64,000 nucleotides of DNA, taken from the NCBI GenBank assembly GCA_944326585.1, contig CALVEN010000007.1:282-64281 (forward strand), read 5' to 3'. Position 1 is the first letter of the stretch; every line of letters starts with the position of its first letter. This document shows positions 3,922 to 64,000 of this stretch, in pieces. The notes beneath the pieces were generated by a model, which saw only the letters and a list, made by a program, of their open reading frames with translations, was not told where the DNA came from and did no database searches. The DNA is from Candidatus Gastranaerophilales bacterium. GTDB taxonomy: Bacteria > Cyanobacteriota > Vampirovibrionia > Gastranaerophilales > Gastranaerophilaceae. A program made the translations under genes and the position numbers.

Positions 3922-4140
3922 TTCAAAAAATTTAAAAAATATTTATAAAAAGCCTTTTTTTATTATTAATGTTACAAAATGTAAAGGTAAATTCAGAATA
4001 GGCTGGAATGGGCTTATAATGGCTTTATAATATTATTTAATATATATGGTCGAATTATGTGTATGGCAAATATTCTGCGGCTAATGTTTTTATAAAAGAG
4101 AAAGCAATGTGTGCTTGAGAGTATAATAAAGGAGGATATT

Positions 4141-6150
4141 TTGACTGAAGTGAACAGAGTGGATTTGAACATGAATGCAAATGTTGTTGCATCTGACGGT
4201 AAATCCGTTGAAAATCGAAAGATGAATACTGTTTTCAATGAAGATGGTCAATTGAACAGGGTTGAAAAACAAGAATTACGAAGAAATGCTTCTGTAGATT
4301 TGACTAACAAAGAAATCAAACATTATTCACAAATGGAGGGCGGTGAGGCATTTTTAGATAAATATGCAAATGCCGTTAATATTAAAGATCAAAGTGAAAG
4401 AGAAATCGCTCGTAAAAAACTCGCACTTGACTTTTTTGTTGGCAATGATCCATACAACGATGTTGCTAATGAGATAAAAGCTGATTTGCGAAGATTCGGA
4501 GTTAATTCTGAAGAGCTGGAAAACAGATTAGAACAAAACAGGCTTAATTATCATCGTCCGAAAGTTACGATAAATTCGGAGTTTATTCCGGGTAGTATAA
4601 ATACAGCTCTTCCTGCAAGAATGCATGTTAACAAGGACCAGGACGGAAATATTACAAGTCTTACTTTGTATGAAGGTGATGAAGGTCTCAATAATGAGGA
4701 TGCTGCACCAACCAGAGTATTAGACAAAGAGGGTGAATATTTTGTCGACAAAGATGGTAAATATTACAGATTTAATGAAGAATCAAGTGTTTTATCGGAT
4801 GTAACAATAGCTGTTAATGCACAAAAAGCGGCTGCAGAACAAAAAGAAGAAAAGAAAATTGATGAGAAAAAAGAAGAACCGCCTAAATTCAGTGATATTA
4901 TGGCTAAAAATAATTCTGTTGTAATCGATGAAACCGGTTCTAAACAACGTTTAACAAGTGCAGAACAGTGGACAACAAATTTAAAAATTCCGAAAAATAC
5001 AGAATATAATGAGAACGGAGTTCCGGAAAAACTTGCAATAGAATTACCGTCAGATTACGGTGCAAAAGGTCCGGATGGTGTCGCTCAAAAAAGATATCAA
5101 ACTTTACAATTAGTTGATGCTGAAAATAATATTTATTCAGACAGAGCCGGCATTCGTCAATTCAAGTTGGAATTTGGTGAAGATGGAATTTCACTTGTTC
5201 AACAAAATATTGATGATAAAAAGGTCAAGGATTTTTTGAATCAGAATACTGAGCAAGTTTCTGAAACTGCTAAAGAGGCAGGCTTAAATGAAGTACAGAA
5301 AAAAATGGAAATTACAGCTGAGGAAGAATCAGGAGATATTATGTCGCAACTTTCTGACAGAAATAACTCTTGGGAAACATATACTCAGATTGGTACTGAT
5401 ATAGGTCATGTAACAGGTTCACACGGCTTGTTGGAAAAACTTGTTGATGAGCAGGATGTTACCGGAATTAAAACCTTTAATGACTTGAAACCGGCAATTG
5501 AAGGTTTGATGGCAAGAGTTCCTGAATCATTATATGATACTCCTGAATATAAAGCCGTACAGGAAGCAATTGACAAATTAGCTGAAGAGCCTGATGCAAA
5601 CATTAAGCACAGCTGGTTCAGACAGATTGGCGGTGATACTGATATAAGAAAACTGGACAAAGCTTTGATGAATTTGGCTAAAACTCATCTTGCCGGTACA
5701 ATTCAGGGCGCAAATCATGCAAATAATGCTTATTTGGTAGGCGGAAACGGTTCCGTTGTAATTGCTCCTGATAGAGAAAAAGGTGTTTTTGATACTGACG
5801 CTAAATTTACAATTAACGGCAATGTTTACTACCTGTATGAGGAACGTTCACTTATTGATAGAACGATTGACTTCCAGGATGTTGTTGAACACAAAGATGA
5901 TGATCATCGTGATTCTTTATCCTTAATTAGAAATGAGATTACCGGTAATGACAGGCATGGCGAGATTAAATTTAACGCTGAGCGTGCTGCTGAAAATGGA
6001 CAGTTATACTTCAAAAATCATGATACCGGTGAAAAGTTCGAAATTATTCTTGAAAACAATAATGCATATCTTATGGGTAAAGATAATGTTAAAGTCCTTT
6101 TGGAGGATATACTTAACGGCAGAGCACAGATGCCTGACCAAGTGGTATAA
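4141..6150 (+). CDS. Large hypothetical protein (~669 aa)
   Basis: Long ORF. AAGGAGG at 4129-4135 lies 5 nt before TTG 4141, so that start is more likely than the track start at 4111. No recognisable domains or signal peptide. Confidence 0.6.
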   Translation: MTEVNRVDLNMNANVVASDGKSVENRKMNTVFNEDGQLNRVEKQELRRNASVDLTNKEIKHYSQMEGGEAFLDKYANAVNIKDQSEREIARKKLALDFFVGNDPYNDVANEIKADLRRFGVNSEELENRLEQNRLNYHRPKVTINSEFIPGSINTALPARMHVNKDQDGNITSLTLYEGDEGLNNEDAAPTRVLDKEGEYFVDKDGKYYRFNEESSVLSDVTIAVNAQKAAAEQKEEKKIDEKKEEPPKFSDIMAKNNSVVIDETGSKQRLTSAEQWTTNLKIPKNTEYNENGVPEKLAIELPSDYGAKGPDGVAQKRYQTLQLVDAENNIYSDRAGIRQFKLEFGEDGISLVQQNIDDKKVKDFLNQNTEQVSETAKEAGLNEVQKKMEITAEEESGDIMSQLSDRNNSWETYTQIGTDIGHVTGSHGLLEKLVDEQDVTGIKTFNDLKPAIEGLMARVPESLYDTPEYKAVQEAIDKLAEEPDANIKHSWFRQIGGDTDIRKLDKALMNLAKTHLAGTIQGANHANNAYLVGGNGSVVIAPDREKGVFDTDAKFTINGNVYYLYEERSLIDRTIDFQDVVEHKDDDHRDSLSLIRNEITGNDRHGEIKFNAERAAENGQLYFKNHDTGEKFEIILENNNAYLMGKDNVKVLLEDILNGRAQMPDQVV

Positions 6151-10576: not shown

Positions 10577-11449
10577 ATGAAAAAGATTTTAATTTGTCTG
10601 TTTTTTTTGTTAATGTCATCTGCGTCTGTTTTTGCAATAGAAAGTTCTTCCGTTACCCCTGCTGATAAACTTTTACAAGATTCAGAAAATTTGCAATCCG
10701 ATTCTAATAAAGAAAAGGAAACAAATTTTGATGAAGTAAATTTTGATTTGTATATGGATACTTTACAAAAAAAAATAAAAAAAAATTGGAAACCTTTTCA
10801 TATAAATAAATCTGCAACGGCAGTAATTTCTTTTAGAATTGCAAAAGATGGTTCAATGAGTTATTGTAATGTCTTTAAGTCTTCAGGAATAGATTCTTTT
10901 GATGATATTGCGCTCAGAGCTGTTCATTTTTCTGCACCTTTTAATCCATTACCTGAAAAATATAATGGTGATTTCGTTAATATAGAATTTAAATTTGAGT
11001 ATAATGTGTATGGTTCAAAGGCAAAGATAAATAGGTATTCAATTTCAGAACACAAACACAATTTTGTAAATTATTCTATAGCAGAAAGTTCACCATCTAA
11101 ATTAATAGAAAGAAATTTACAATCGCGGGAATGTAAAAGAGTTTTTAAAAATTATATGAAAGACGTTAGCACAATTATTAGTTCTATGACATTTTCTTTG
11201 TATAAGCCATCAATAGTAAGAATTAAATTTTTTATTCAAAAGGATGGGACAGTAACCGGTCCTAAAATAAGTGCTTCCAATGGTAATAAGTTATTTAATA
11301 ATGAGGTTTTGGGGCAAATCAAAAATTTGCAATTTAATCCTATACCATCAGAGCTTAATTTAGAAAGTATTCCGGTTGAATATCAGTTTAATAATTATAT
11401 TATACCAAAACCTAAAACTATGGCAGACTATATATTACCAATACTGTAG
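10577..11449 (+). CDS. Secreted protein with two TonB-C-terminal-like domains
   Basis: N-terminal signal peptide (KKILICLFFLLMSSASVFA). Two ~80-aa segments resemble the TonB C-terminal fold (...ISFRIAKDGSMSYCNVFKSSG... and ...KFFIQKDGTVTGPKISASNG...). Confidence 0.5.
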   Translation: MKKILICLFFLLMSSASVFAIESSSVTPADKLLQDSENLQSDSNKEKETNFDEVNFDLYMDTLQKKIKKNWKPFHINKSATAVISFRIAKDGSMSYCNVFKSSGIDSFDDIALRAVHFSAPFNPLPEKYNGDFVNIEFKFEYNVYGSKAKINRYSISEHKHNFVNYSIAESSPSKLIERNLQSRECKRVFKNYMKDVSTIISSMTFSLYKPSIVRIKFFIQKDGTVTGPKISASNGNKLFNNEVLGQIKNLQFNPIPSELNLESIPVEYQFNNYIIPKPKTMADYILPIL

Positions 11450-14634: not shown

Positions 14635-15723
14635 ATGGACATCATCAGAATAAATGATAATTCAGATAAATTGTATTATATCGGGGGCATTGTCCGCGAT
14701 AAACTTCTCGGCGTCCAAAGTTTGGATGTTGATATTACGTATGTCGGCAATGCTATTGAATACTGCTCAAAATTCGGCGAAGTTATTCAGGAAAATCCTG
14801 ATTTCGGTACGGTACGTGTAAATGTCGGCGGGCGTGCAGTTGATTTTGCGTCCACCCGTGCGGAAGTTTATGAAAAAAAAGGACATTTGCCGGTCGTAAC
14901 TAAAATAGGTTGTTCTTTAAAAGAAGATGTTTTGCGGCGCGATTTTACCGTGAATGCGCTTGCAATGAGTGTTTCTACGGGTGAAATCGTGGATTATGCG
15001 GGCGGGCGTGAGGATTTGAAAAATAAACTTCTCAGGGTTTTGCATGATGAAAGTTTTATTGATGATCCGACAAGAATTATCCGTGCTTTGAAATTTCGCG
15101 TGCGGTTCGGGTTTGAATTGGAAGAACATACAAGACGCCTTCAAGAGGACTATCTGGCGCATATAAATTATGATATGTCTTATAAGCGCGTTAAAAAAGA
15201 ACTTATTGAAACTTTTAATCTTAATTCACAGCGTGCGTTTGAGATTTTTGTGAATGAAGGAATTTATAAGCTTGTTTCGCCTGAAAATTTTGAACTGCCA
15301 AAGATTAATATTGAAGAGCTTATAAAAAAATATCCGGTACAAAATATTTGGCTTGTTTACATAGGGCTTTTGCCGGATTTGTCACGGCTTGAGTTTACAA
15401 AAGAAGAAAGAAAAATTATTGAAGATGCTCGTACAATCGGTGACTTGAAAAATGATTTTGAAATTTATAAGGCTTTTGACGGACTTGCTTCGGAAAGTAT
15501 TTTGCTTTACGGAATTTTAAAGGATATGAGGGCTGTTGTAAGGTATCTTGATACGCTCGCTAATATAAAAATTTCTATAACCGGTGAAGATTTAAAACGT
15601 CTGGGAATTGCACCGTCACCCGAATATCAGAAAATTTTTGATTTTGTTTTGAAAGCAAAACTTGAAAATCCTAAAATTACTTTTGAAGATGAAATTCAGC
15701 TTGCCAAAAATTTTAAAAATTGA
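14635..15723 (+). CDS. cca: tRNA nucleotidyltransferase / poly(A) polymerase family (CCA-adding enzyme)
   Basis: Motifs GGIVRDKLLG, DVDI, RRDFTVNALA. ATG 14635 preferred over the track's TTG 14599. Confidence 0.8.
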   Translation: MDIIRINDNSDKLYYIGGIVRDKLLGVQSLDVDITYVGNAIEYCSKFGEVIQENPDFGTVRVNVGGRAVDFASTRAEVYEKKGHLPVVTKIGCSLKEDVLRRDFTVNALAMSVSTGEIVDYAGGREDLKNKLLRVLHDESFIDDPTRIIRALKFRVRFGFELEEHTRRLQEDYLAHINYDMSYKRVKKELIETFNLNSQRAFEIFVNEGIYKLVSPENFELPKINIEELIKKYPVQNIWLVYIGLLPDLSRLEFTKEERKIIEDARTIGDLKNDFEIYKAFDGLASESILLYGILKDMRAVVRYLDTLANIKISITGEDLKRLGIAPSPEYQKIFDFVLKAKLENPKITFEDEIQLAKNFKN

Positions 15724-15792
15724 TATAATAAATTCAAAAGGAGAATGATAGATATGACTAGTTTGAATAACGGGGGGGGGCGACTCTCCTAA
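15721..15792 (+). promoter_or_regulatory. Pilin-family expression cassette 1: extended -10, SD, ATG, poly-G, premature stop
   Basis: TGATATAAT 15721-15729; AAGGAGA 15738-15744; ATG 15745 and 15754 (in frame); G9 15772-15780; TAA 15790-15792. Short frame encodes M(ID)MTSLNNGGGRLS*. Confidence 0.7.
15772..15780 (+). repeat. G9 homopolymer (candidate slipped-strand tract)
   Basis: Nine consecutive G in an AT-rich context, at the same relative position as the tracts at 38022, 43499, 51035 and 60113. Confidence 0.95.
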
Positions 15793-15926
15793 GTAGACAG
15801 GACAAGGGTTTCGGCGGTATTGGTTTAGTAAAGTTACTAAGATACTATGGCACTAAGGCACTAAGAAGTAACATTCGTCATGGTAAGGCGGATCAATATA
15901 GTTGTATTCGCAGGGAACCTGTCATC

Positions 15927-17087
15927 TTGAACTGCCTGAGGCACGACAACATACTGGGCATTGGTCAACCTATAAACGTCATCCCGCATTTATTGCGGGA
16001 TCTCAATAAAAATATCAAGAGATTCTTCGCTGGCGCTCAGAATGACAAAACCGTGAGAAATGTAGGTCGCCTTTACTATGCCGACAGAAAAATTAACAGT
16101 CGGGTTAGTAAACCCGACCTACAAGTGACTATGGCTCAGAATGACATAAATACCTTCCCTCGCCCTACGGGAGAGGAATTAAGGGAGAGGGGGCTATCAG
16201 CTTATGATGAGATTTTGAAACGAGTTCAGGATGACAGAGTAGTGAGCGGAGCTCACAGTAAAGAACTTAACGTCCTAACGTCTTATCGTCTTAACGGCTT
16301 TAAAAAGAAAGCCGGTGCTACGCACGTAGACATGTCAGGCAACATTCGTTGTGCTGCGTTTACCCTCGCCGAGGTGCTTATCACCCTTGCCATAATCGGT
16401 ATTGTAGCAGCTTTGACTATTCCGACTCTTATAACGAATTATCAGAAAAAACAGACTGCATCAAAATTAAAACAAACATATTCAATAATCTCTCAGGCGC
16501 TTACAATGGCTCAAGCAGAGCATGGCGACACCACAACGTGGGAAGTTGCAGGAATTTACGATACTCCTACGAATGATACTAATTTTAATCATGAAGATGC
16601 AATAACGAAATTTACTACAAAATATTTTATGCCATATGTAAAGGTGGCAAAAGATTACGGGTACACGCAATATTCAAAGATAGGTTATGATGGTGACTAT
16701 CTTCCCGCCACAGGTCTTATTTCAAACAGTCGCAGTGCTTATGGGTATATACTGCTTTTATCCGGTAATGTTTTAATTAGAATTGGAATCGGAACCGGGT
16801 GTCTGAATAACGAGATAAATCCGGACGGTACTTGTGTTACTCGAACATACAAGAATATAGTATTCAAAGTGGATATAAACGGTTTTGACAAACCTAATGT
16901 GATTGGCAAAGATGTTTTTAATATGACGTTTGATTTACGCAAAAAAGTTTTCGGATTTCATAATTACGGTATAAGTACAAGACAGCGGTATTTGGATAAC
17001 TGTAAAAGTGATGAAGATGCACAAGTCTGCGGGTATCTGATATTTTTAGACGGATGGGAAATCAAAGATGATTATCCGTGGTTTTAG
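15927..17087 (+). CDS. Prepilin-type N-terminal cleavage/methylation-domain protein (pilin/pseudopilin-like), paralog 15
   Basis: AAFTLAEVLITLAIIGIVAALTIPT class III signal/hydrophobic helix at residues ~145-170 of the track ORF. C-terminal VDINGFDKPNVIGKDVF motif shared with paralogs. The frame stays open upstream to the G9 tract. Internal ATG 16332 gives a conventional MSGNIRCAA|FTLAE leader. Confidence 0.85.
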   Translation: MNCLRHDNILGIGQPINVIPHLLRDLNKNIKRFFAGAQNDKTVRNVGRLYYADRKINSRVSKPDLQVTMAQNDINTFPRPTGEELRERGLSAYDEILKRVQDDRVVSGAHSKELNVLTSYRLNGFKKKAGATHVDMSGNIRCAAFTLAEVLITLAIIGIVAALTIPTLITNYQKKQTASKLKQTYSIISQALTMAQAEHGDTTTWEVAGIYDTPTNDTNFNHEDAITKFTTKYFMPYVKVAKDYGYTQYSKIGYDGDYLPATGLISNSRSAYGYILLLSGNVLIRIGIGTGCLNNEINPDGTCVTRTYKNIVFKVDINGFDKPNVIGKDVFNMTFDLRKKVFGFHNYGISTRQRYLDNCKSDEDAQVCGYLIFLDGWEIKDDYPWF

Positions 17088-20307: not shown

Positions 20308-20414
20308 TCCATTACCAGTATAACTCGTTTTTGAAAGTATTTCAAGAATGATATCAAGAAATATGATTAGAATTTGGGATATATAGAAATTGTACTGCGC
20401 GCCGTAGACGGCGT

Positions 20415-21342
20415 ATCTACAATAGTAGAAATTTAGTATAGGTATTAAACCGGCAATTATACAATGCACTGCGGTGGCGATCTACAATAGTAGAAATTTA
20501 ATATAGGTATTAAACTCGTGGAGTAAATCAACGTGCTTGCCCATCTACAATAGTAGAAATTTAATATAGGTATTAAACAAATAGAATCATCAAAAGGCAC
20601 CTTTTAATCTACAATAGTAGAAATTTAATATAGGTATTAAACATGGTTCGTCTGCCTTATATTCGCTTCGGATCTACAATAGTAGAAATTTAATATAGGT
20701 ATTAAACTTCAAGACCGCCAAACATGCCCAAAATATCTACAATAGTAGAAATTTAATATAGGTATTAAACATTGCGTCAAACCTTGGCAACGGCAAATCT
20801 ACAATAGTAGAAATTTAATATAGGTATTAAACAGGAAGATTATGAACAACAAGAAGAATAATCTACAATAGTAGAAATTTAATATAGGTATTAAACAAAA
20901 AATCATGACAATAATACACGCTTTATCTACAATAGTAGAAATTTAATATAGGTATTAAACATCAATTTTGCAACAGCAAGTATCAGTGATCTACAATAGT
21001 AGAAATTTAATATAGGTATTAAACATGACAAGATATGAAGATAGTTTCGTCTATCTACAATAGTAGAAATTTAATATAGGTATTAAACAGCCGAAGCGAG
21101 CCTTCACACACTGGAGGATCTACAATAGTAGAAATTTAATATAGGTATTAAACGAGGCTATGGTAGTTTCTGGCGATGTATCTACAATAGTAGAAATTTA
21201 ATATAGGTATTAAACAAATGAATGCATATCTTGATACGGCGGAATCTACAATAGTAGAAATTTAATATAGGTATTAAACAACTCTCGGGCATCAATGCTA
21301 CTTCATATCTACAATAGTAGAAATTTAATATAGGTATTAAAC
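20415..21342 (-). CRISPR. Type V-A CRISPR array, 15 repeats and 14 spacers
   Basis: 36-nt repeat, minus-strand reading GTTTAATACCTATATTAAATTTCTACTATTGTAGAT. This carries the Cas12a crRNA handle AAUUUCUACU-AUU-GUAGAU. Repeat starts on the + strand: 20415, 20480, 20543, 20607, 20672, 20735, 20797, 20861, 20925, 20989, 21053, 21118, 21180, 21244, 21307. Spacers are 26-29 nt. The leader-distal repeat (20415-20450) has one substitution. Confidence 0.97.
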
Positions 21343-21479
21343 CCTTAGAAGGTAATTTTTACCTATTTTTGGATATTTTATTGTCAAAGTACGACATATT
21401 TGGTTATATTTCATCTCATTTAATACCTATATTTATAATTTTTTTATATTAAGACTCAGGTTTGTACAAATCTAGTAAA
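21343..21479 (-). promoter_or_regulatory. CRISPR leader
   Basis: AT-rich 137 nt between the cas2 stop and the first repeat. The degenerate repeat is at the opposite end of the array. Confidence 0.75.
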
Positions 21480-21755
21480 CTAATCTACTATTATTATATC
21501 ACTTTCTTCATTTTTTAAAAAGCCATATTTAGAAATTTTACAATTTTCACTTGTTTCTATTATTAAAACACTATCAGTTTGTTTAAATAAATTTTTAAAA
21601 ACACTATCTATTTCATTTTTTATAATATCTAATAATCGTTTGCTATTTTGTATTTTATATACAGAAAATTGCATTCGGTTCCCGTATTTTCGTAAAAATT
21701 TTGAAAATTGTGTTCTTAATTTATCATCCGCTATATCATAACTTACTAATATCAT
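21480..21755 (-). CDS. cas2: CRISPR-associated endoribonuclease Cas2
   Basis: MILVSYDIADDKLRTQFSKFLRKYGNRMQFSVYK is a canonical Cas2 N-terminus. 4-nt overlap with cas1. Confidence 0.92.
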   Translation of the reverse strand: MILVSYDIADDKLRTQFSKFLRKYGNRMQFSVYKIQNSKRLLDIIKNEIDSVFKNLFKQTDSVLIIETSENCKISKYGFLKNEESDIIIVD

Positions 21756-22710
21756 AAGACCGCCTTTGGGAATTTATTTATATCATCATCTTTCATAAAC
21801 CATCTGTAATATTGTTGTATAAAATCAAAAATATTTTCTTTATAATTCAATATTTCTTCTAAAATTTGACAAACAAAATTGTTGCTGTCTTTCCAATCTA
21901 ATTGATATTGTTCTTTATGTTGTGTAAATTTATAATTTTCTATTTGTTTTAAATTTATCATTTTCCTTATTTTATAATCCACAATAGGTCTAAATGGTTC
22001 TATAATATCGCATACTAAAGATTTTCTTTTATAAAATTCTTTATGTAAATTACCTTTATAAATGTCAAAACCGTATATGTTTAATATTGCTTCTATATAA
22101 TTAAATAATACAGTATACCCTATATCTAAAAGTAAATTTATTTTATCTCTTTTTACTCTCGGCTGGCGTCCCTGCCAATCAAAAGGTTTAAACATCCTAT
22201 TAAAATAAATTTTTGCACATGTTCCCTCAATGCCCATAATTTCGTAATTATTATAATCAGACTTTGATAATTTATTTATTGAATCATTTAATTTTTTTAT
22301 TCCGTCTTTAAATTCTTTATCTCTTAATTTCTTTAAAAAATTTCTTTGATTAGATATTTTATTTATAATCAATTGCTTCGCAATTTCTTCACTGCGAGTT
22401 GTTATATATTGTTTTTCATGAAGTAAAAAATTACCTTCCAATACAAAATTTATTGTTGAGTAAACTTTAAAACCGGGTGTAAATAATACTATTGAAAATC
22501 CAAATTTTTTGCTCCTTGAAATTATTCCGCTTGTTAAGGTAATACCACCAACTATAAAAAGTGCAAATAAATTATAGCAACTTAATTGAAATTTAATTTT
22601 ATCTTCTTTGTCAAAGATTACAACATTATCATTTTTGAAGGAAATTTTGTCCCTTCATGCGTAAAGACAATTATAACTTTTTTCTCTAAAAAATCTGGTT
22701 TGGTCAGCAT
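21752..22710 (-). CDS. cas1: CRISPR-associated integrase Cas1, interrupted by a 1-nt frameshift near codon 23
   Basis: ATG 22710 overlaps the cas4 stop (ATGCTGA) and encodes MLTKPDFLEKKVIIVFTHEGTK. The -1 frame continues ISFKNDNVVIFDKEDKIKFQLSCYNLFALFIVGGITLTSGIISRSKKFGFSIVLF... into the track ORF 21752..22441. One extra A in the A4 run at 22645-22648 would give a 319-aa Cas1. Confidence 0.88.
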
Positions 22711-23264
22711 AATAAACTCCTGTCACAGCTTGGTTCATATATACAATTTTTACATTTGTCTATATTTTGTGCTTTAAATGTATGAATATCAAAATCGTGA
22801 ATATCCTTGATTAACTTTCGGAATTTGTTATCAGTTTCTTGGTCTTCTTTAGGGAGTTTGATGTCATAATTTTTATTATCTTTAATACTGTGAAATCTTA
22901 TTTTTTTAACTTCATAACCCATCTCAATTAATGCATAATATTGTGCATATAATTGAAATACATAACCGTCGTATATTTTTATTATTTTATTCTTTCGTTC
23001 GGTTAAAATACCTGTTTCTATATCAAATGTATCAATCTTTCCGGCAATATTAAATTCTGAACAAAATATGTTTATTCCCTGTAAAATAGTTTTTTTATCC
23101 GAATATAATTGTTTGTCAATTGTCTTATGAGCATTAGTTCCTGAAGTTTGTTTTGTTGATTGATACACAGATTTTTCTAATGTCCCGTATAACTTATGAA
23201 AATAAATTGATACGGGACAAAAGATAAAATCATTTAGATATGAGATTAATATTGTTTCTTCCAT
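22704..23264 (-). CDS. cas4: CRISPR-associated exonuclease Cas4
   Basis: N-terminal Cys (FCPVSIYF), RecB-like D...ERK core, C-terminal CKNCIYEPSC cluster. 1-nt overlap with cas12a (TAATG). Confidence 0.9.
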   Translation of the reverse strand: MEETILISYLNDFIFCPVSIYFHKLYGTLEKSVYQSTKQTSGTNAHKTIDKQLYSDKKTILQGINIFCSEFNIAGKIDTFDIETGILTERKNKIIKIYDGYVFQLYAQYYALIEMGYEVKKIRFHSIKDNKNYDIKLPKEDQETDNKFRKLIKDIHDFDIHTFKAQNIDKCKNCIYEPSCDRSLLC

Positions 23265-26200
23265 TATTCACTATCAAGTTCTTGTATATAAGTTAACCAG
23301 TCAGAATTTTTTATTGCATAAGCTATTTTTTCACCTCCATTTGTATGCTTTATACGATTAAGGATAATTAGTCCTTTTCTGGCTATATTATAAGCTCCGT
23401 TCGCGTCAGCATTTTGAGGCAAAGAATTATCACAACATCTTGAATCAAAGAAAAATCCTTTTTTATTTTTTATCGGTGATAATATATAATCTTTTTCGTT
23501 ACCTGTAATACTATTTCTTAATTGTACTAAAAGCTTAAATAAAATTCCAAAACCATTAAATCCGTCTTTTTCGGCAACTGCATTAAAGAATTTTGTATCC
23601 GCCTTGTCAAGTATTTCATTTTTTATGTTTTGATAATCTATATTATATTTATCAAATAAAATTTGAAATTCCTTGGTTAAATTTACGGTAATATTATCCC
23701 ATTCATTATTCTTCTTAGGATTTCGGAATGTTCGTATTCTGTCACCGTATGTACAAAGAGTCCATTCAGTTCTGTTTCCGGAAGATTTATCACTGAAATT
23801 TTTATAATCAAAATTAAATTCAAAATAATTTTCTTGATTATTAAATTTTATAAAATTAAATTTTTTAATAAATTCTTTATCAACTTTTTTTAAATCAAAT
23901 AAATTTACAAAACCCGTAGTCGGATCAATTTTACTCGTCCACACTGCAGGAATATAAAATATTATTCCATTTTGTTTTGTACTATTTATTTCTTTTGTTG
24001 CAAGCTGGTATGCATTCATCAATCCGCCCTGTTCAAATTTGTTTTGAATTGATTTATCAACAAGATAACTTAGTTTATCAATTAATTTTGTTTCAAATTT
24101 ATCATATACGGATTTTTCGACTTTTTTTCTTGAATTTTTAAAGCCGCTATTTAAATCTTCCAGTACTATAATGGCATTGTATTTGAACATTAAACGGGTA
24201 AGTTCATGCACAACCTGACTCATATATCCTTCTTTTAATTCTTTTATGTTTTGAATAGTACCCCACGATTTTCTATTGGCATCTCTTTCGGCCTCTTTTC
24301 TTTCGAGTAAATCATGGTAATTTGTATTTTCGATTATATTTAAAGAACGTTGTTCAATAATTTCACCGTTCATGTTGATAACGCTTATGTATAGAAGATG
24401 TCTTTCGCCTCTATCAATACCTATAATGTGAATATCATCAGAGTTTTTAATTTCATTGTTTGTAAAATCATTTAATTTGTTTATGTTTTGTGCTTTAAAA
24501 TTCAATGTAATCGGAACATGGAACTGAAATTTATCCAATGTAAATCTTTTATCTTTGATTAAATCATATTCAAAAGTACTGTATTTTTTAGGATTATCAG
24601 GGTTTTTATTTTCAATGGGTTCATTTTTAGGATGAGTTACTTTTGTTTCAATACTCTTTTTTCTGTAGAAAATTTCCGCTCCGCCGTTTAATTGATATAT
24701 GACATCTTTTAAGTTGTCTGCATCAAATAAGGCTCTCCAATACATTGTATGCAGATTCGGACGACCTTTTGAATATTTTGAAAAATCTTTGTTATAAATT
24801 TGGAAAAGATAAAGTTTACCTTCTTCTACAAGTTGATTTATGTAACTTTCAGAAATATTTGTAAAAGAAATTTTATATCCTTGCAGCTCAACTTCCCGAT
24901 AAAATTGACTTATATCTTGATATGTATTAGTATCCGAAAATTTAAAGTTGAATTTTGACCAGTCTTCATGCTTATTTATAGATTGTTTATAAAAATCTAT
25001 TAGTTCATGACAAAATCCTAAATCAAAATTTGCTCCTTTTTTATATAATCCTTTTTCATATTTGGCTATCAATTCATCGGAAGGATTAAATTCTTCTTTT
25101 CTGGAGTCTGAAAATAATACTTTTGGAAGCATTTTATTGGGACCGGGAAGCAATTTATATTCTATTTTTTCATAATATGATAAAGCTGACTCTTTATCAT
25201 TATTAATAAAAATTTTTCTGTTATTTTTATTGATAATTCCAATGTAATAATTTCCGTCTTTAATTAACAATGTCCCTAAATTTGCTTCTTCTTTATTCAA
25301 GTCCCAGCCGCTTAAAAAAGTAGGGCAATCAAAATTAAGTTTAAATTTTTCGACAGAATAAGGTTTTTTGGTTAAATAATTTCTTGTTTTGTTATAAACC
25401 GGAATTATTTCAGATAACAGTTCATAATTAAGCGAATTATAAAATTCTAAATCTGTTTCAATTGATTTGTTTTTCGGAATAAGGTGTTTTATAAGCATCT
25501 GTACATTTTTTAGTGAATCAAGGAAATCTTTTATTTTTTCAACTGCTTTTTTGTCTTGTATCAATTGTGTAGATGTTTCATCATATTCTTTTTCAAGTAT
25601 AGGTTTTACTTCAGAATAAGTTTTATCTATGAGTTTAAAATGTTCATTTATTTTATCTTTAAAATAGTTATAAAGTTTACCTTCATTGTTGCTATCTTTG
25701 TCATATTTTGATATAAGTTCTTCAATTCTATAAAGTGAAATTTCTTTAATTTTTTTTAATTCGTTATCTTTTTTGTCTGTATATTTTTCTGTTCCGTAAG
25801 CCAGTTTACCTTTATAATTATTGTCATATTCCATACTCAAAAGATAATTAATATAGCCCCAATCTTTGTAGATATTTTGGCTTATTCCTGTATTATCATC
25901 CAGAATTAAATAAATTTCTTCTGTATTATAGTTAGATATATTTTCAATAACATTTTCAAATGATTTATTTTCTATGAAAGCATCAGAAAATATTTTAAAA
26001 TAGTTATTAATGAGCTCAGTTACCTGTTTATCAGATTCAATCGTATTAAATTTAAAAGAAACAGAATTTGCATCACTTAAAATTTGCTTATAAAGCTGTT
26101 TTAATTTTGGGATTTTAATTTTTGTATCTTGAATATATTTATTTACTATTTCATTTATACCCTGTATTTTTTTATCATTTGTTGCTTTTCCGGAAATAAT

Positions 26201-26923
26201 AAGATTATATTCTTCAATTTGCCTTTGATTTAAAACATGTGTATAATTTTCAACGGTAGAAAAATATTCATCACAATCAAGTCCTAAATTTTGTTTTATT
26301 GTGTTTTTTATTTCAGGAATATTTTCTGAAATTTTATTAAATGCTTTAATATTCTTTAAATAAATAGGCAGATTTTCATTAATTAACCTGTAAGCTATAG
26401 ACGTATGTTTTTCTTCATTTGAATACATATTTTTTCGGTTTGTATCAAAACCTGAAAAATACGTTGTGAATTTTTCAAACACTTTTATTTCTTCAAGGAT
26501 TTCATTGTTGTTTTTATAATATTCTTGTAAATTTTTATTAATCATGTCTTTTCCAAAAAGAGTATTATATTTGGAATTCTTAGTAAATCTATCGGAAATT
26601 TTTTGACGTAATAATTTTTCTATACTTGAAAATTCTTTTTCTTCTTTTTCAGATAAATTTTGGCGGTTAAAAAATTCTGTATATTGTATTAATAAACATT
26701 TAAAATTTTCATCATTAAAATTATCCAAACATTCATTAATGAAATATTTATGATATTCATCACAATATTTTTTAATTTTTTGATATAATATCGCCTTTTT
26801 TTCATCTTCTTTTAAAATATATTCCGCAAAATACTCCTTTGTTTTTCCAATCGGAATAAGCTCAAATCTTAAAGTTTTTGAAACTTTAAATAAATTGTGA
26901 AAACAGTCATAAAAATTTTTCAT
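23264..26923 (-). CDS. cas12a: Cas12a (Cpf1), type V-A effector, 1219 aa
   Basis: N-terminus FKVSKTLRFELIPIGKT. RuvC-I IGIDRGERHLLY, RuvC-II IVLEDLNSGFK, RuvC-III DADANGAYNIARKG. AGGAG lies 6 nt before the ATG. The repeat type matches. Confidence 0.95.
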   Translation of the reverse strand: MKNFYDCFHNLFKVSKTLRFELIPIGKTKEYFAEYILKEDEKKAILYQKIKKYCDEYHKYFINECLDNFNDENFKCLLIQYTEFFNRQNLSEKEEKEFSSIEKLLRQKISDRFTKNSKYNTLFGKDMINKNLQEYYKNNNEILEEIKVFEKFTTYFSGFDTNRKNMYSNEEKHTSIAYRLINENLPIYLKNIKAFNKISENIPEIKNTIKQNLGLDCDEYFSTVENYTHVLNQRQIEEYNLIISGKATNDKKIQGINEIVNKYIQDTKIKIPKLKQLYKQILSDANSVSFKFNTIESDKQVTELINNYFKIFSDAFIENKSFENVIENISNYNTEEIYLILDDNTGISQNIYKDWGYINYLLSMEYDNNYKGKLAYGTEKYTDKKDNELKKIKEISLYRIEELISKYDKDSNNEGKLYNYFKDKINEHFKLIDKTYSEVKPILEKEYDETSTQLIQDKKAVEKIKDFLDSLKNVQMLIKHLIPKNKSIETDLEFYNSLNYELLSEIIPVYNKTRNYLTKKPYSVEKFKLNFDCPTFLSGWDLNKEEANLGTLLIKDGNYYIGIINKNNRKIFINNDKESALSYYEKIEYKLLPGPNKMLPKVLFSDSRKEEFNPSDELIAKYEKGLYKKGANFDLGFCHELIDFYKQSINKHEDWSKFNFKFSDTNTYQDISQFYREVELQGYKISFTNISESYINQLVEEGKLYLFQIYNKDFSKYSKGRPNLHTMYWRALFDADNLKDVIYQLNGGAEIFYRKKSIETKVTHPKNEPIENKNPDNPKKYSTFEYDLIKDKRFTLDKFQFHVPITLNFKAQNINKLNDFTNNEIKNSDDIHIIGIDRGERHLLYISVINMNGEIIEQRSLNIIENTNYHDLLERKEAERDANRKSWGTIQNIKELKEGYMSQVVHELTRLMFKYNAIIVLEDLNSGFKNSRKKVEKSVYDKFETKLIDKLSYLVDKSIQNKFEQGGLMNAYQLATKEINSTKQNGIIFYIPAVWTSKIDPTTGFVNLFDLKKVDKEFIKKFNFIKFNNQENYFEFNFDYKNFSDKSSGNRTEWTLCTYGDRIRTFRNPKKNNEWDNITVNLTKEFQILFDKYNIDYQNIKNEILDKADTKFFNAVAEKDGFNGFGILFKLLVQLRNSITGNEKDYILSPIKNKKGFFFDSRCCDNSLPQNADANGAYNIARKGLIILNRIKHTNGGEKIAYAIKNSDWLTYIQELDSE

Positions 26924-28439: not shown

Positions 28440-28835
28440 TGGTGGAGACGGTGGGACTCGAACCCACGTCCAAAATGGACCAACATAAACCTCTACGTGT
28501 GTAGATACTCATTTTCTCGGCTGATTCAGGAAAGTATCACTACCCTTAAATCAGCCAAAGTATTTTTTTCGGAAATACTTAACCTTTAATGGTTATCTTG
28601 ATACGCCTACCATCATCAACGTACTGCGTCTTGCATAAGTGGACCCCAACAGCCGGCAAGCTGGGCTATTGAAGTGGCTGACTGCGTCTTACGCAGCAAG
28701 AGCGTATGCTCTTGAAAAATCAGCTTTAATTACGTTGTCTTTAGCATTTAATTTGCTATGCTCGTTGATAACCGAGAACAGCGCTCGGACACGCAGCTTA
28801 TATCAATCATCATCCTGTCAAATCCGGACGTCCCC
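28440..28835 (-). ncRNA. ssrA: tmRNA (SsrA), one-piece
   Basis: 5' GGGGACGTCCGGATTTGACAGG. 3' GACGTGGGTTCGAGTCCCACCGTCTCCACCA. Acceptor stem GGGGACG/CGUCUCC with G3:U. Tag reading frame AKDNVIKADFSRAYALAA* (GCT AAA GAC ... GCT GCG TAA). Confidence 0.93.
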
Positions 28836-37968: not shown

Positions 37969-38063
37969 TGATATAATAAACCCAAAACAAGGAGAGTGTT
38001 GATATGACTAGTTTGAACAACGGGGGGGGGCGACTCCTCCAGGTACAGATAGCAAGGTTTTAG
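37969..38063 (+). promoter_or_regulatory. Pilin-family expression cassette 2
   Basis: TGATATAAT 37969-37977; GGAGAG 37991-37996; ATG 38004; G9 38022-38030; stop TAG 38061-38063. Short frame encodes MTSLNNGGGRLLQVQIARF*. Confidence 0.7.
38022..38030 (+). repeat. G9 homopolymer
   Basis: Nine G. Position equivalent to the other four tracts. Confidence 0.95.
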
Positions 38064-38239
38064 GCGGTATTGGTTGTGTAAAGTTACTAAGATACTATGG
38101 CACTAAGGCACTAAGAAGTAACAGAAAAGTAGGTCGGCATTACCATGCCGACAGAAAAGTTTACTGTCGGGTTAGTAACCCTGACCAACGCGTTACAGAA
38201 AGAATTGACACAACCCCTGAAACAAATTATAATTCTAAT

Positions 38240-39079
38240 ATGATAAACTATAAATCAGAAAACAAAAACGTGAGAGAAGTTCAGTGTAACCACACCCCTC
38301 ACTCTACTCACTCGACTCAAGCAAAACGTGTCGCGTTTACTCTGGCGGAGGGTGCTACGCACGTAGACATGTCAGACAACATTCGTCGTGTGGCATTCAC
38401 TCTGGCGGAAGTTTTGATAACCCTTGCCATAATAGGTATTGTGGCAGCTGTGACAATTCCGACGTTAATAACAAAGTATCAAGAGAAGCAGACAGTAACA
38501 AGGTTTAAGTGGATATATTCAACATTAGCGAATGCTTTCACTATGGCTGTTGCGGAAAACGGGGCGCCTGAAACTTGGGATTTGAATAGTGCTGAAGATA
38601 TGGCAAATATTTTGTCAAAATATATGAGAATTAGTGAAAAATGTTATAATACCGCTGGTTGTTTGCCTCCGGATTTAAATATTGTTGCATTGACTGGCGA
38701 AATGCGTTATACATTACCCGGCAATGCAAATTATGTAAAATCACGTTTTAATAACGGCATAAGCCTTATGTGGTTTGAGCCTCATAAAGGGTGCAGTTAT
38801 TCTTATATTGATACTGATGGCAACCAAATAGATGTAGAAAACAGTTGCGGCTCTTTGTACGCTTTTATCTCAACGAATCGTACAAACAGATATGGTCTTG
38901 ACCATTTTGTTTTTACAGTTACACCGAAGGGAATATTGCCGGGCGGTTATGATTATAATGACAGCAATATAAAGCGGAATTGCACAAAAAATTGGACATC
39001 CGATGGTAATACAAATGGTGCTACCTGCGGGGAATGGATAAGACGCTGGGGTAATGCGGATTATTGGTATGATAATTAA
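38240..39079 (+). CDS. Prepilin-type N-terminal cleavage/methylation-domain protein, paralog 38
   Basis: RRVAFTLAEVLITLAIIGIVAAVTIPTLITKYQEKQT. The frame is open upstream to the G9 tract. Internal ATG 38369 gives MSDNIRRVA|FTLAE. Confidence 0.85.
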   Translation: MINYKSENKNVREVQCNHTPHSTHSTQAKRVAFTLAEGATHVDMSDNIRRVAFTLAEVLITLAIIGIVAAVTIPTLITKYQEKQTVTRFKWIYSTLANAFTMAVAENGAPETWDLNSAEDMANILSKYMRISEKCYNTAGCLPPDLNIVALTGEMRYTLPGNANYVKSRFNNGISLMWFEPHKGCSYSYIDTDGNQIDVENSCGSLYAFISTNRTNRYGLDHFVFTVTPKGILPGGYDYNDSNIKRNCTKNWTSDGNTNGATCGEWIRRWGNADYWYDN

Positions 39080-43440: not shown

Positions 43441-43510
43441 TGGTATATTATAGAAAACAAGGAGAGTGCAAATGGAAGATATGACTAATTTGAATAACGG
43501 GGGGGGAGCG
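43441..43510 (+). promoter_or_regulatory. Pilin-family expression cassette 3 (in frame)
   Basis: TGGTATATT 43441-43449; GGAGAG 43461-43466; ATG 43472 and 43481; GGGGGGGGAG 43499-43508. There is no stop afterwards. Confidence 0.7.
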
Positions 43511-44608
43511 ACTCTTCTAAGTAGGCAGGACAAGGGTTTTGACGGTATATTTTGGGAAAAGTTACTAAGATACTATGATACTAAGGCAGTAAGAAGTAAC
43601 AGAAAAGTAGGTCGGCATTACTATGCCGACAGAAAAGTTTACCGTCGGGTTAGTAAACCCGACCTACAAGAGAATATGGCTCAGAATGACAAGAATATCA
43701 TCCCTCGCCCCTTGGGGAGAGGGTGTCACGAAGTGACAGGAGAGGGGCTAAGTGACAAAAATGTGAGCAAAGCTCACAGAAAACGCTTAGTGCCTTACTG
43801 CCTTAGTAACTTAGTATCTTCACAAAAAGCCGCGTTTACCTTAGCAGAGGTTTTGATAACCCTCGGCATAATCGGTATTGTGGCAGCGATGACAATTCCG
43901 ACACTTATTACGAATTATCAGGAAAAACAAACAATTTCCAAATTACAAAAAGTCTACGCGTCTTTAAAGAATGCATTTGAACTTGCAAAAGTTGAGCATG
44001 GTGATTATGAAACCTGGTCGTGGAATCAGATTCCTGTAACCAATGGCGCGCGAACACAATATTTTTGGGAAACATATATTTTCCCGCATTTAAAGATTGC
44101 TAAAAAATGTTTCCCGATAACAACGGAATGTGTCGCAGAGGGTATTACAAAATTGAATGGTACGGCTGAATCTGTTGTTACATCTACACATGGTGCTTTT
44201 GTTTTATATGACGGTACATATGTTTATACGTGGGCTGGAGGTTCCGGTTTTCATCCGCATATTTGGGTGTATGCTGATATCAACGGTGAGGCAAAGCCAA
44301 ACGTGGTAGGCAAAGATATATTTACTATGTTTTTCTCGCCAAAAAATCCAGGGAATAAAATCGGCTCGTTTGATGACGATAATAATTTTGTTGACTCAGG
44401 AAAATTATCAACCCCTGCTTACGGATTAAGTTTGTATGGAGATGTAAACGGGGTTACCGTTGAAGATCTTATGGATCCGAATTTTGTTCTGGAAACTGAC
44501 ACAGGTGCCAAGCAAAAACATTGTTGTACCACAGAAGGCACAGGGTATATGTGCGGTGCGGCAATAAAATTAAACGGCTGGAAATTTCCCGACGGTTATC
44601 CCAGATAA
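43472..44608 (+). CDS. Prepilin-type protein, paralog 43; the whole long leader is in frame with the cassette ATG
   Basis: Single ORF MEDMTNLNNGGGATLLSRQDKGF...QKAAFTLAEVLITLGIIGIVAAMTIPTLITNYQEKQT...ADINGEAKPNVVGKDIF. Confidence 0.85.
   Translation: MEDMTNLNNGGGATLLSRQDKGFDGIFWEKLLRYYDTKAVRSNRKVGRHYYADRKVYRRVSKPDLQENMAQNDKNIIPRPLGRGCHEVTGEGLSDKNVSKAHRKRLVPYCLSNLVSSQKAAFTLAEVLITLGIIGIVAAMTIPTLITNYQEKQTISKLQKVYASLKNAFELAKVEHGDYETWSWNQIPVTNGARTQYFWETYIFPHLKIAKKCFPITTECVAEGITKLNGTAESVVTSTHGAFVLYDGTYVYTWAGGSGFHPHIWVYADINGEAKPNVVGKDIFTMFFSPKNPGNKIGSFDDDNNFVDSGKLSTPAYGLSLYGDVNGVTVEDLMDPNFVLETDTGAKQKHCCTTEGTGYMCGAAIKLNGWKFPDGYPR
43499..43506 (+). repeat. G8 homopolymer followed by A-G (an interrupted 10-nt tract)
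   Basis: GGGGGGGGAG occupies the position where the OFF copies have G9. Confidence 0.95.
43517..43872 (+). repeat. 356-bp leader cassette, apparently identical to 51052..51407
   Basis: A by-eye base-by-base comparison found no mismatch between the two intervals. The flanks diverge at once on both sides. Confidence 0.8.
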
Positions 44609-50973: not shown

Positions 50974-51055
50974 TGATATAATAAACCTAAAAAGAAGGAG
51001 AGCTAAAATGGAAGATATGACTAGTTTTAATAACGGGGGGGGGCGACTCTCCTAA
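50974..51055 (+). promoter_or_regulatory. Pilin-family expression cassette 4
   Basis: TGATATAAT 50974-50982; AAGGAGAG 50996-51001+; ATG 51008 and 51017; G9 51035-51043; TAA 51053-51055. Short frame encodes MEDMTSFNNGGGRLS*. Confidence 0.7.
51035..51043 (+). repeat. G9 homopolymer
   Basis: Nine G. Position equivalent to the other tracts. Confidence 0.95.
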
Positions 51056-51407
51056 GTAGGCAGGACAAGGGTTTTGACGGTATATTTTGGGAAAAGTTAC
51101 TAAGATACTATGATACTAAGGCAGTAAGAAGTAACAGAAAAGTAGGTCGGCATTACTATGCCGACAGAAAAGTTTACCGTCGGGTTAGTAAACCCGACCT
51201 ACAAGAGAATATGGCTCAGAATGACAAGAATATCATCCCTCGCCCCTTGGGGAGAGGGTGTCACGAAGTGACAGGAGAGGGGCTAAGTGACAAAAATGTG
51301 AGCAAAGCTCACAGAAAACGCTTAGTGCCTTACTGCCTTAGTAACTTAGTATCTTCACAAAAAGCCGCGTTTACCTTAGCAGAGGTTTTGATAACCCTCG
51401 GCATAAT
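51052..51407 (+). repeat. 356-bp leader cassette, apparently identical to 43517..43872
   Basis: See 43517..43872. Confidence 0.8.
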
Positions 51408-52137
51408 TGGGATAGTAGCAGCAATGACAATCCCGACGATATCGCGTAATATTCAGCATGCCGTACTAAAAAATCAATTCAAGAAATTCTACAGCACTTT
51501 CTGGCAGGCGGTAATCGGTATACAGACAAAAGGAGGCAGACCTGTACAGTGTTATTACTGGGATGGCGCAAATCCATATACGGGCAAATGCACCCCGACA
51601 TGTGATGAAGATGAAAAAAATCAATACGGTAACTGTACTGTATATAGGTGTGCGGAAACAGGAGAACCCATTCCGACGGATATAAACGGAAAGTCTTCGG
51701 AGTGCAGTGATTTTTATGAGGAATTGTTTTTAAAAACATTAAAGACAACAAAAATATGTAAAGATAAGGCATATGAACAGGGGTGCCTGCCGGAAGACTT
51801 CAGAGGTGTGGATGTTGTAAAATCAGAACAAAATCCGGATAAAGAATATGACCCTGCAGGAATTTTTGCTGATTCCCCTGTGAAAAATAATTATCCTGTC
51901 TTTGTGTTAGCTGACGGAACATATATTGTAGGTTATGCTCGTTATTTAGCGGGTTTGCCTATTTTTGTCGTGGACATAAACGGGACTAAAGGTCCAAACA
52001 AATGGGGTTATGATATATTTTCTTTTAGCTTGAGGGGTAATGCGCAAACCGGAATAAATAAATTGAATAGTGCAACTTATGCAACGGAAAAAGGCGGGAA
52101 AACTTTTCAGCAGATGCTGGACGAATGTTTTAAATAG
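51211..52137 (+). CDS. Prepilin-type protein, paralog 51
   Basis: QKAAFTLAEVLITLGIIGIVAAMTIPT, then a mature domain unrelated to paralog 43 but homologous to the partial gene at 1..546. The frame is open upstream to the G9 tract. Confidence 0.85.
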   Translation: MAQNDKNIIPRPLGRGCHEVTGEGLSDKNVSKAHRKRLVPYCLSNLVSSQKAAFTLAEVLITLGIIGIVAAMTIPTISRNIQHAVLKNQFKKFYSTFWQAVIGIQTKGGRPVQCYYWDGANPYTGKCTPTCDEDEKNQYGNCTVYRCAETGEPIPTDINGKSSECSDFYEELFLKTLKTTKICKDKAYEQGCLPEDFRGVDVVKSEQNPDKEYDPAGIFADSPVKNNYPVFVLADGTYIVGYARYLAGLPIFVVDINGTKGPNKWGYDIFSFSLRGNAQTGINKLNSATYATEKGGKTFQQMLDECFK

Positions 52138-59948: not shown

Positions 59949-60100
59949 TAAATGCGGGATGACGTATAAGGATTGTCCAAGCTCAAGTGTAATGTCCTGC
60001 CTTTGGCAGTGCGGGATGACGTTTATAGTTTGTAGATTTATTTTTTCACAAAGATTTTTATTTTTTTGAGATGCTGAAACCAGTTCAGCATGACCGGAGG

Positions 60101-60197
60101 TTAAGCTAACTGCCCCCCCCCCCTGAATGAAAAGTAGTTGTTATGCGTATTTGCGCCCATTTTTTAACCTCCAAGTATTCTGTTACTTATTATATCA
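60101..60197 (-). promoter_or_regulatory. Pilin-family expression cassette 5 (minus strand)
   Basis: Minus strand: TGATATAAT (60197-60189); GGAGG (60172-60168); ATG 60160; G11 (60123-60113); TAA 60103-60101. Short frame encodes MGANTHNNYFSFRGGGQLA*. Confidence 0.7.
60113..60123 (-). repeat. G11 (C11 on the + strand) homopolymer
   Basis: Eleven consecutive C on the + strand. Confidence 0.95.
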
Positions 60198-63658: not shown

Positions 63659-63668
63659 TGTCAGGCAA

Positions 63669-63860
63669 AACCCTCACCCGAATTTCTAAACTCGCTGGTG
63701 CTCGTCAAGAAATTCTACCCTCTCCCTCTGGGAGAGGGGTGGCTGAGCCACGACATCATGTTTGATAATTTTGGTATGCCTATTCATGTCTTTGTTAGGG
63801 GTGCCAAAGGCACGACAATACAATGTCATTCTGAGCGCCAGCGAAGAATTCCGGTTGCAG
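63669..63860. repeat. Cluster of GC-rich hairpin modules (intergenic)
   Basis: CCCTCACCCGAATTTCT...AGAAATTCTACCCTCTCCCTCTGGGAGAGGGG; GTGGCTGAGCCAC; GTGCCAAAGGCAC; GTCATTCTGAGCGCCAGCGAAGAAT. The same module types occur in the pilin leaders, mfd and 57535-57681. Confidence 0.7.
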
Positions 63861-64000
63861 GTCGTTATGGTAATACCTGTAAAGTATCTTGTTGAAAGCA
63901 CGATATACAAGCTAATCAGCAATACAAAGAGCATATATAGAGTCAGCCTCGCGTGAACTTGATTTGCCAGCGCAAGTCCTAATAACTTCGAATTGGCGAA

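Follow-up and report, generated by a model that had tools for sequence, protein, structure and literature searches.

The 64,000-nucleotide (nt) stretch of DNA analyzed here, referred to as the window, belongs to contig CALVEN010000007.1 of a Candidatus Gastranaerophilales bacterium (assembly GCA_944326585.1) and contains five complete genes encoding type IV pilin-like proteins, each of which carries a tract of G residues between its start codon and the conserved pilin motif. The five genes (loci 1 to 5) share the same build. An extended -10 promoter element, a Shine-Dalgarno (SD) sequence, and an ATG codon are followed by 6 to 13 codons, the G tract, and a pyrimidine-rich segment complementary to the SD region. 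About 100 to 190 open codons then lead to the sequence A↓FTLAEVLITL(A/G)IIG(I/V)VAA (the arrow marks the predicted prepilin cleavage site) and to a variable body of approximately 230 to 255 residues. The tract is present in all genes of the window encoding the FTLAEVLI motif (5 of 5). An earlier note had proposed that the tract of locus 1 is an ON/OFF switch operated by slipped-strand mispairing and had located the same architecture at positions 38022, 43499, 51035, and 60113. Inspection of the four additional loci confirmed this description, the fifth tract being on the minus strand (Table 1).

As assembled, the tracts of loci 1, 2, and 4 (G9) and of locus 5 (G11) are one G short of the length that brings the start codon in frame with the body of the gene, and the tract of locus 3 (G8AG) is in frame. 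The latter tract is interrupted and fills the ten positions of a G10 tract in which one G is replaced by A. The ATG codon and the long frame form a single open reading frame (ORF) when the tract is G10 (or, at locus 5, G12); with one G less, translation encounters a stop codon 3 to 10 codons downstream from the tract. A change of a single unit is thus sufficient to join the gene body to the frame of the start codon or to separate it from that frame. The long frame contains stop codons immediately upstream from the tract and has no start codon close by, and it can therefore be entered only via the upstream ATG. At locus 1, all the elements previously listed were found at their positions. The frame of its start codons reads MTSLNNGGGRLS, begins with MTSLNN, and ends at TAA 15790-15792; the other OFF frame ends at TAG 15794-15796, within TAAGTAG, both OFF frames stopping after about five codons at most. 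Addition of one G results in a frame that runs uninterrupted from the tract to a stop codon at 17085-17087, as had been claimed, and that the mechanical list of ORFs detects no earlier than TTG 15927.

The tracts are not explained by composition. Overlapping matches to G8 numbered 11 in the window for an expectation of 0.35, a count reached in none of 100 shuffled sequences, and the five tracts are the only runs of G or C exceeding 6 bases. These observations bear out the assertion that runs of G8 to G11 in five paralogues are unlikely to be due to chance. Each of the five loci contains in its 5' coding region a homopolymer of about 7 bases or more in excess of composition, as do phase-variable genes. 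In the 29 long ORFs of the window, GGG accounts for 10.9% of the Gly codons, and this codon is used in none of the four Gly-Gly-Gly tripeptides encoded outside the tracts. Thus, the homopolymer is maintained at the nucleotide level.

To compare tract lengths at the same chromosomal loci, the latter were retrieved from approximately 40 independent gut-metagenome assemblies (L156-L195) through exact matches to neighboring housekeeping proteins (100% identical). These sources are ENA metagenome assemblies of at least five naming series (NODE_, scaffold_, k87_, k119_, and ONAT22), and the tracts were scored by a script. At locus 1, G9 was found in six samples and G10 in one (L159). Locus 3 harbored G8AG in three samples (L167, L169, and L174) and G7AG, G8, G8A, or G9 in others. 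Ten other samples could be compared at locus 4, with G9 in seven, G10 in two (in frame in L177; the contig of L185 is too short to be scored), and G11 in one (L183, also cut short). At locus 5, ten other samples harbored G11 (n = 6), G12 (n = 2, in frame), G6 (n = 1, in frame), and GAG6 (n = 1, out of frame). In four flank contexts, the 18 nt upstream and the 12 nt downstream were identical, and tract length was the sole difference. The loci that are ON vary between samples; for example, locus 1 is ON and locus 5 OFF in BRZ_CG, and locus 5 is ON in BRZ_DL. In-frame tracts led gene callers to full-length genes (463 amino acids [aa] for locus 1 in L159 and 477 aa in L191). The same form occurs among database proteins, approximately 30 of 120 representatives starting with M..NNGGGATLL..., which corresponds to G10. 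Many start with M..NNGGGATLLSRQDKGF.., the exact product of the G10 frame, and P0038 starts with MTSLNN, as does locus 1; the look-up of another protein, P0082, gave no record.

The comparison with related genomes that the earlier note had suggested as a check therefore revealed different tract lengths at identical loci, with both ON and OFF alleles among close strains. Judging from these sequences, length variation of this type marks a hypermutable contingency locus at the population level, and it supports the proposal of a contingency-gene family switched by slipped-strand changes in poly-G. Each locus is probably a stand-alone type IV pilin-like gene gated by a hypermutable poly-G tract and subject to phase variation. 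Slipped-strand mispairing during replication would add or remove a G, each paralogue would flip between ON and OFF independently, and the population would carry many combinations of pilin-like proteins at the cell surface. Such variety would suit escape from phages, antibodies, or other host pressures.

A second source of variation was detected at the position of locus 5 in L186-L195. Beside an identical spermidine synthase, the mature domain was encoded by 750 nt or by about 1,000 nt, and the sets of leader modules differed. These differences suggest cassette replacement by recombination between paralogues, which would therefore add to the variation generated by the tracts. Two observations concern the sequence data for this family. 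Many contigs in L166-L185 end inside the leaders or within a few dozen bases of the tract, indicating that the repeat-built leaders fragment assemblies. Gene callers place the start of the proteins at assorted internal codons, with predicted lengths of 250 to 463 aa for one locus.

The earlier note had cautioned that under-calling of homopolymers by the assembler would produce the same pattern. According to this explanation, the genes are permanently ON, with stable in-frame tracts (G10 or G12) from which short-read assembly loses one G. The four uninterrupted tracts of the window are indeed one base short, as are 46 of 57 tracts overall, all sources are apparently metagenome assemblies, and long G runs are the homopolymers that sequencers find hardest. 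However, identical G9 and G11 calls were made across assemblies of the five or more naming series, and G10, G11, and G12 were likewise called at these loci. Alleles that are not prone to such errors occur in both states (G6 and G8AG in frame; GAG6 and G8A out of frame). Within the window, 42 A or T runs of at least 7 bases are located inside the 29 intact long ORFs. Moreover, poly-G tracts of this size have been found to be accurately sequenced on Illumina instruments in the Campylobacter field (PMC6321876). Neither an error peculiar to this assembly nor a general homopolymer problem is likely, and permanently ON genes hidden by artefacts appear highly improbable; a systematic under-call of one base may contribute to the direction of the bias described below. 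The part of the caveat stating that the OFF copies are all short by exactly one base stands, but the pattern recurs across projects. The frameshift in cas1, which had been cited together with the tracts, was rejected as a sign of homopolymer-poor assembly. It is located at a G3 and is a real allele, since the gene is broken alike in L158 (229 aa) and intact (319 aa) in four samples (L159 and L163-L165). By this comparison, the frameshift is a segregating allele.

The distribution of tract states was strongly biased. Of the 57 assessable tracts, 46 require addition of one base, 7 are in frame, and 4 require removal of one base. Tracts one base short were the most frequent among approximately 50 related loci, which come from several projects and represent at least five further species-level lineages, the same pattern being found in other species in L015, L023, L048, L056, L065, L196, and L198-L204. 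The scan of genome contigs with GGGGGGGGCGACTC was unspecific and returned mostly GC-rich genomes, together with at least six relevant loci (L015, L023, L048, L056, L065, and L078). In another species, L201 contains two family genes with an inverted unit, AGTCG-C9, on the minus strand (near 4238-4412 and 16381-16552). These C9 tracts are likewise one base short (ON = C10). Most tracts are G9 with G10 as the ON length. In Campylobacter jejuni, the modal length of poly-G tracts is G9, G8 mostly gaining and G11 mostly losing bases (PMC3401435). The majority of G9 tracts with ON at G10 fits common descent of a GGG-GGG-GGG-GCG start module combined with such a length pattern. A mutational attractor at G9 falls short as the sole cause of the bias, given the resting lengths of G11 (ON = G12) at locus 5, where five or more different flank or leader backgrounds carry it, and of G10 (ON = G11) in L196. 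Under slipped-strand phase variation, all paralogues would have inherited one GGG-GGG-GGG-GCG design (Gly-Gly-Gly-Ala). In long G tracts, losses of bases would outnumber gains, ON genes would mostly turn OFF by deletion, and a tract at ON minus one could be selected back to ON only by addition of one base. Whatever its absolute length, a tract under alternating selection would then cycle from ON to ON minus one and back.

Programmed transcriptional slippage or -1 frameshifting, as in dnaX, insertion sequence (IS) elements, and Shigella mxiE, provides another interpretation of the same bias. In these systems, as here, a homopolymer of 9 or more bases is followed by a gene body displaced by one base from the start frame, and this is the predominant genomic state. 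The genome that is one G short would then be the functional template, RNA polymerase adding a G on C9 to C11, or ribosomes slipping by -1 on G GGG GGG. The outcome would be low constitutive expression of every paralogue, which pairing of a CU-rich segment with the SD sequence or with poly-G might tune. In agreement with such recoding, ON minus one is the commonest state at any length (G9 for G10, G10 for G11 in L196, G11 for G12, and C9 for C10 in the inverted unit), and locus 5 keeps G11 despite its various backgrounds. In addition, a tract of at least 9 bases fills the RNA:DNA hybrid, a known requirement for slippage in dnaX, IS elements, and mxiE, and the complementary segments beside the tract are conserved. 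Recoding would have left the out-of-frame state conserved, without in-frame alleles in DNA. In contrast, in-frame alleles are common (7 of 57 tracts and about 30 of 120 database representatives), tract length varies in identical contexts, and interrupted tracts are found in both frames (G8AG in; G8A and GAG6 out). Known bacterial slippage uses A or T runs with a fixed out-of-frame state, in contrast to the variable tracts of this family. In addition, the 5' region does not fold better than shuffled sequences, and tracts are entirely missing in a sister species. Recoding on its own is accordingly rather improbable. We regard as unlikely, too, a combined scheme in which recoding and mutational switching both operate on the G runs, the one-G-short tract being a selected resting template and the CU-rich segment setting the slippage rate by pairing either with the SD sequence or with poly-G, but not with both at once.

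A related species, represented by L197 (ERZ1051414 scaffold_844), harbors four pilin-like genes of the DUF6613 type within 21 kb, with leaders of 30 to 79 codons. These genes contain no G or C run of 6 or more bases. The tract is therefore a lineage-specific addition rather than a part of the function of the protein.

The encoded proteins resemble type IV pilins and type II pseudopilins. The N-terminal methylation motif (PF07963) was detected in four of the five genes with scores of 22.3 to 25.4 bits (cut-off 21.2), the score at locus 2 being below the cut-off (16.6). All five proteins contain FTLAE, with Glu at position +5, followed by a hydrophobic helix, and the C-terminus touches DUF6613. 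Mature residues 1 to 76 aligned to residues 1 to 75 of PpdD (E = 5e-6; structure 6gv9), and the alignments to GspG (5wda) and PilE (8pfb) also started at residue 1. The AlphaFold model of the mature part of locus 3 had a mean confidence score (pLDDT) of 89.8 and comprised a 53-residue helix (residues 3-55) and a beta-rich head, an organization that is also that of these pilins. For the head domain, Foldseek searches against the PDB gave no match (best E = 1), and the DUF6613 head thus differs from those of solved pilins or other structures. Protein searches identified more than 7,500 homologues, and DNA matches with the same start module were assigned to 'Candidatus Gastranaerophilales bacterium' and to further bins. 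The genes are dispersed singly among housekeeping genes (fatty-acid synthesis, grpE-dnaJ, murA, mfd, hydF, speE, and ldpA), the cyanobacterial LdpA gene adjoining locus 5. Together with the DNA matches, this neighbor makes a gut member of the Vampirovibrionia (Melainabacteria) the most likely host. A sixth pilin-like gene enters the window from the right by its 3' end.

The leaders located between the tract and FTLAE consist of short hairpin-forming modules, such as ATCCCGCA/TGCGGGAT and GTCGGGTT/AACCCGAC. Folding of the leader RNA of locus 1 was more stable than that of shuffled sequences (z = -4.55, none of 100 shuffles being as good); the value for the mature coding part was z = +0.22. Modules of the leaders, for example GTCATTCTGAGCGCCAGCGAAGAAT and CCCTCTCCCTCTGGGAGAGGGG, are also present in the intergenic region 63660-63910. 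Scanning metagenome contigs with a conserved leader 17-mer, GTTACTAAGATACTATG, yielded no family member and only unrelated palindromes. The frame connecting the tract to FTLAE was open at every scored locus, over 22 to 211 codons, and the other two frames were full of stop codons. The set of modules present at one locus varied by strain, and the frame always remained open. Persistence of the frame despite module turnover argues that the leader is translated but is not constrained as a protein. Prepilin peptidase would remove the translated leader at A↓F, and this predicted cleavage may explain why the leader tolerates a rapidly changing mosaic of hairpin repeats, provided that the frame is open. 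Rickettsia palindromic elements are inserted in frame in coding genes. Like the latter, the modules are short hairpin repeats, also found in intergenic regions, that are tolerated within an ORF; unlike them, the modules are piled up in the disposable part of one gene family in strain-variable combinations.

In nearly all of 35 distinct start modules, the SD region has its complement in the 7 to 10 nt located directly downstream from the tract. This pairing involves two different pairs of sequences, AGGAGAGT/ACTCTCCT and, at locus 5, GGAGGTTAA/TTAACCTCC. The CU-rich segment (15781-15792 at locus 1 and its equivalents) can alternatively pair with the G tract, a possibility reminiscent of the pyrG leader of Bacillus subtilis, in which poly-G pairs with a CU-rich stretch. 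Folding of the five start modules was no better than that of shuffled sequences (z = -0.05 to -1.14), and pairing between the SD sequence and the complementary segment is therefore indicated only by its recurrence and by the existence of two distinct sequence pairs. Rfam searches at gathering thresholds identified only transfer-messenger RNA (tmRNA) in the window and gave no match at E ≤ 1 over 15690-16400, where there is thus no known riboswitch or leader RNA.

These features could also be those of a regulatory 5' region, the segment between the ATG and the tract being a separate leader ORF or part of a 5' regulatory RNA and the protein starting near FTLAE, ungated by the tract. Loci 1 and 2 have an ATG located 8 to 9 codons before FTLAE (MSGNIRCAA↓F and MSDNIRRVA↓F), which corresponds to a normal prepilin leader length, and this explanation would take into account the sequestration of the SD sequence by the segment downstream from the tract as well as the strong structure of the leader RNA. 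However, loci 3, 4, and 5 have neither an ATG nor an SD sequence near FTLAE, and ATG 16332 is not preceded by an SD sequence. The open frame starts at the tract, its conservation at every locus and in every strain is sensible only if it is translated, and no Rfam family was matched. Internal initiation independent from the tract is consequently very unlikely.

Several observations weigh against phase variation of pilin genes by slipped-strand mispairing, the interpretation that we favor. The internal ATG codons, at 16332 in locus 1, where the earlier note had placed it, and in the region of 38370 in locus 2, could give rise to a prepilin with a short leader independently from the tract. Known pilins have a basic leader of 5 to 30 residues, Gly at position -1 of the cleavage site, and genes organized in pilus operons. 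All five genes of the window encode Ala rather than the canonical Gly at position -1, the leader comprises approximately 110 to 200 residues when counted from the upstream ATG, and the genes are dispersed. A short leader is conceivable only at loci 1 and 2, from the internal ATG lacking an SD sequence. Genes for a prepilin peptidase, an assembly ATPase or platform, or other pilus machinery were not found in the window or in the fetched flanks. The tract states are lopsided (46 versus 7 versus 4), even where the ON length is G11 or G12. Finally, the lengths compared are those of assembly consensus sequences, from which high-frequency reversible switching within one clonal population is predicted. 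As far as sequence can tell, the genes nevertheless have all the features by which a simple-sequence-repeat phase-variable gene is recognized.

The coordinates of the five loci and of other features of the window are listed in Table 1. The window also encodes a type V-A CRISPR-Cas system, to which the frameshifted cas1 belongs, and a TonB-like protein whose intact ORF contains two of the three longest A runs of the window.

Table 1. Features of the five pilin-like loci and other features of the window.
Feature	Position	Strand	Remarks
Locus 1 promoter-like site	15701-15729	+	TTGCCA, 17-nt spacer, TATAAT; 11 of 12 matches, TG upstream
Locus 1 extended -10	15721-15729	+	TGATATAAT; same element kept at 5 of 5 loci
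Locus 1 SD	15738-15744	+	AAGGAGA
Locus 1 start codons	ATG 15745 and ATG 15754	+	One frame; 15754 at the usual SD spacing
Locus 1 poly-G tract	15772-15780	+	G9; out of frame, in frame if G10
Locus 1 pyrimidine-rich segment	15783-15790	+	ACTCTCCT; complement of the SD region, with alternative pairing to the G tract
Locus 1 long leader	15781-16358	+	192 open codons, hairpin-forming repeat modules, no start of its own before TTG 15927
Locus 1 mature pilin-like protein	16359-17087 (including stop)	+	FTLAEVLITLAIIG..., C-terminus ...GWEIKDDYPWF; PF07963, 24.6 bits
Locus 2 start module	37969-38030	+	TGATATAAT 37969-37977, SD 37990-37996, ATG 38004, G9 38022-38030; needs G10
Locus 2 leader	38031-38395	+	Contains a duplicated AFTLAE...MSDNIRRVAFTLAE module
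Locus 2 mature pilin-like protein	38396-39079	+	
Locus 3 start module	43460-43508	+	SD 43460-43466, ATG 43472 and 43481, G8 43499-43506 followed by AG; in frame
Locus 3 leader	43509-43834	+	
Locus 3 mature pilin-like protein	43835-44608	+	
Locus 4 start module	50974-51043	+	TGATATAAT 50974-50982, SD 50995-51002, ATG 51008 and 51017, G9 51035-51043; needs G10
Locus 4 leader	51044-51369	+	Nearly identical to the locus 3 leader
Locus 4 mature pilin-like protein	51370-52137	+	Head domain differs from that of locus 3
Locus 5 start module	60096-60172	-	SD GGAGG 60172-60168, ATG 60160-60158, G11 60123-60113; needs G12 or G9
Locus 5 anti-SD	60104-60096	-	TTAACCTCC
Locus 5 leader	60112-59676	-	
Locus 5 mature pilin-like protein	59675-58923 (including stop)	-	
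Sixth pilin-like gene, 3' end	63912-64000	-	...SSSREADSIYALCIAD*
679-aa ORF	4111-6150	+	Amid fatty-acid synthesis genes; no Pfam match at E ≤ 1e-4
TonB-like ORF	10577-11449		Intact; A9-T-A9 in frame at 10767-10785
Type V-A CRISPR-Cas	20402-26923	-	Cas12a 23264-26923, Cas4 22704-23264, Cas2 21480-21755; Cas1 frameshifted near 22640 at G3; array of 15 repeats, 20402-21342
tmRNA gene	28440-28835	-	Rfam RF00023, 135.6 bits

Poly-G phase variation is a textbook mechanism, the examples of which come, to our knowledge, almost exclusively from cultured pathogens such as Neisseria, Haemophilus, Campylobacter, and Helicobacter. Phase variation of pilC in Neisseria is said to have been attributed by Jonsson and colleagues, in 1991, to a poly-G tract in the region encoding the signal peptide. 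As in pilC, the G run of the genes described here is located a few codons downstream from the start, in the leader-coding part of a pilus-associated gene, and gain or loss of one G shifts the frame. Unlike pilC, which is present in one or two copies per genome and encodes a normal Sec signal peptide, the switch module is common to a paralogous family, with five complete genes in 64 kb and more than 7,500 relatives. The tract is also placed at the head of a leader of 100 to 200 codons that precedes a class III (prepilin) cleavage motif, in an uncultured gut member of the Cyanobacteriota. The phasome of C. jejuni provides a second parallel, since an AT-rich genome carries multiple G8 to G11 tracts in 5' coding regions of surface-related genes with G9 as the modal length (PMC3401435, PMC6321876). 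The length-dependent mutation pattern of this species can account for the G9 resting state observed here (PMC3401435). In contrast, the Campylobacter tracts belong to unrelated genes (glycosyltransferases, restriction-modification, and flagellar genes) with mixed ON lengths, whereas nearly all tracts of the family described here belong to one homologous start module with ON at G10. Nearly all copies are therefore OFF by exactly one base. Our literature search found no paper linking Gastranaerophilales, Melainabacteria, or DUF6613 to phase variation.

Poly-G phase variation would thus be the organizing principle of a very large family of surface proteins in Gastranaerophilales, which are uncultured, non-photosynthetic Cyanobacteriota of the human gut. 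The long, strain-variable leader of hairpin repeats preceding the prepilin site is unlike described pilin leaders and bears on the substrate range of prepilin peptidases. If the proposed mechanism is correct, gene callers systematically truncate or mis-start the members of this pilin-like family, and tract lengths in metagenomes could be used to read out in vivo selection for each paralogue. These commensals would display a stochastic and combinatorial pilin-like surface.

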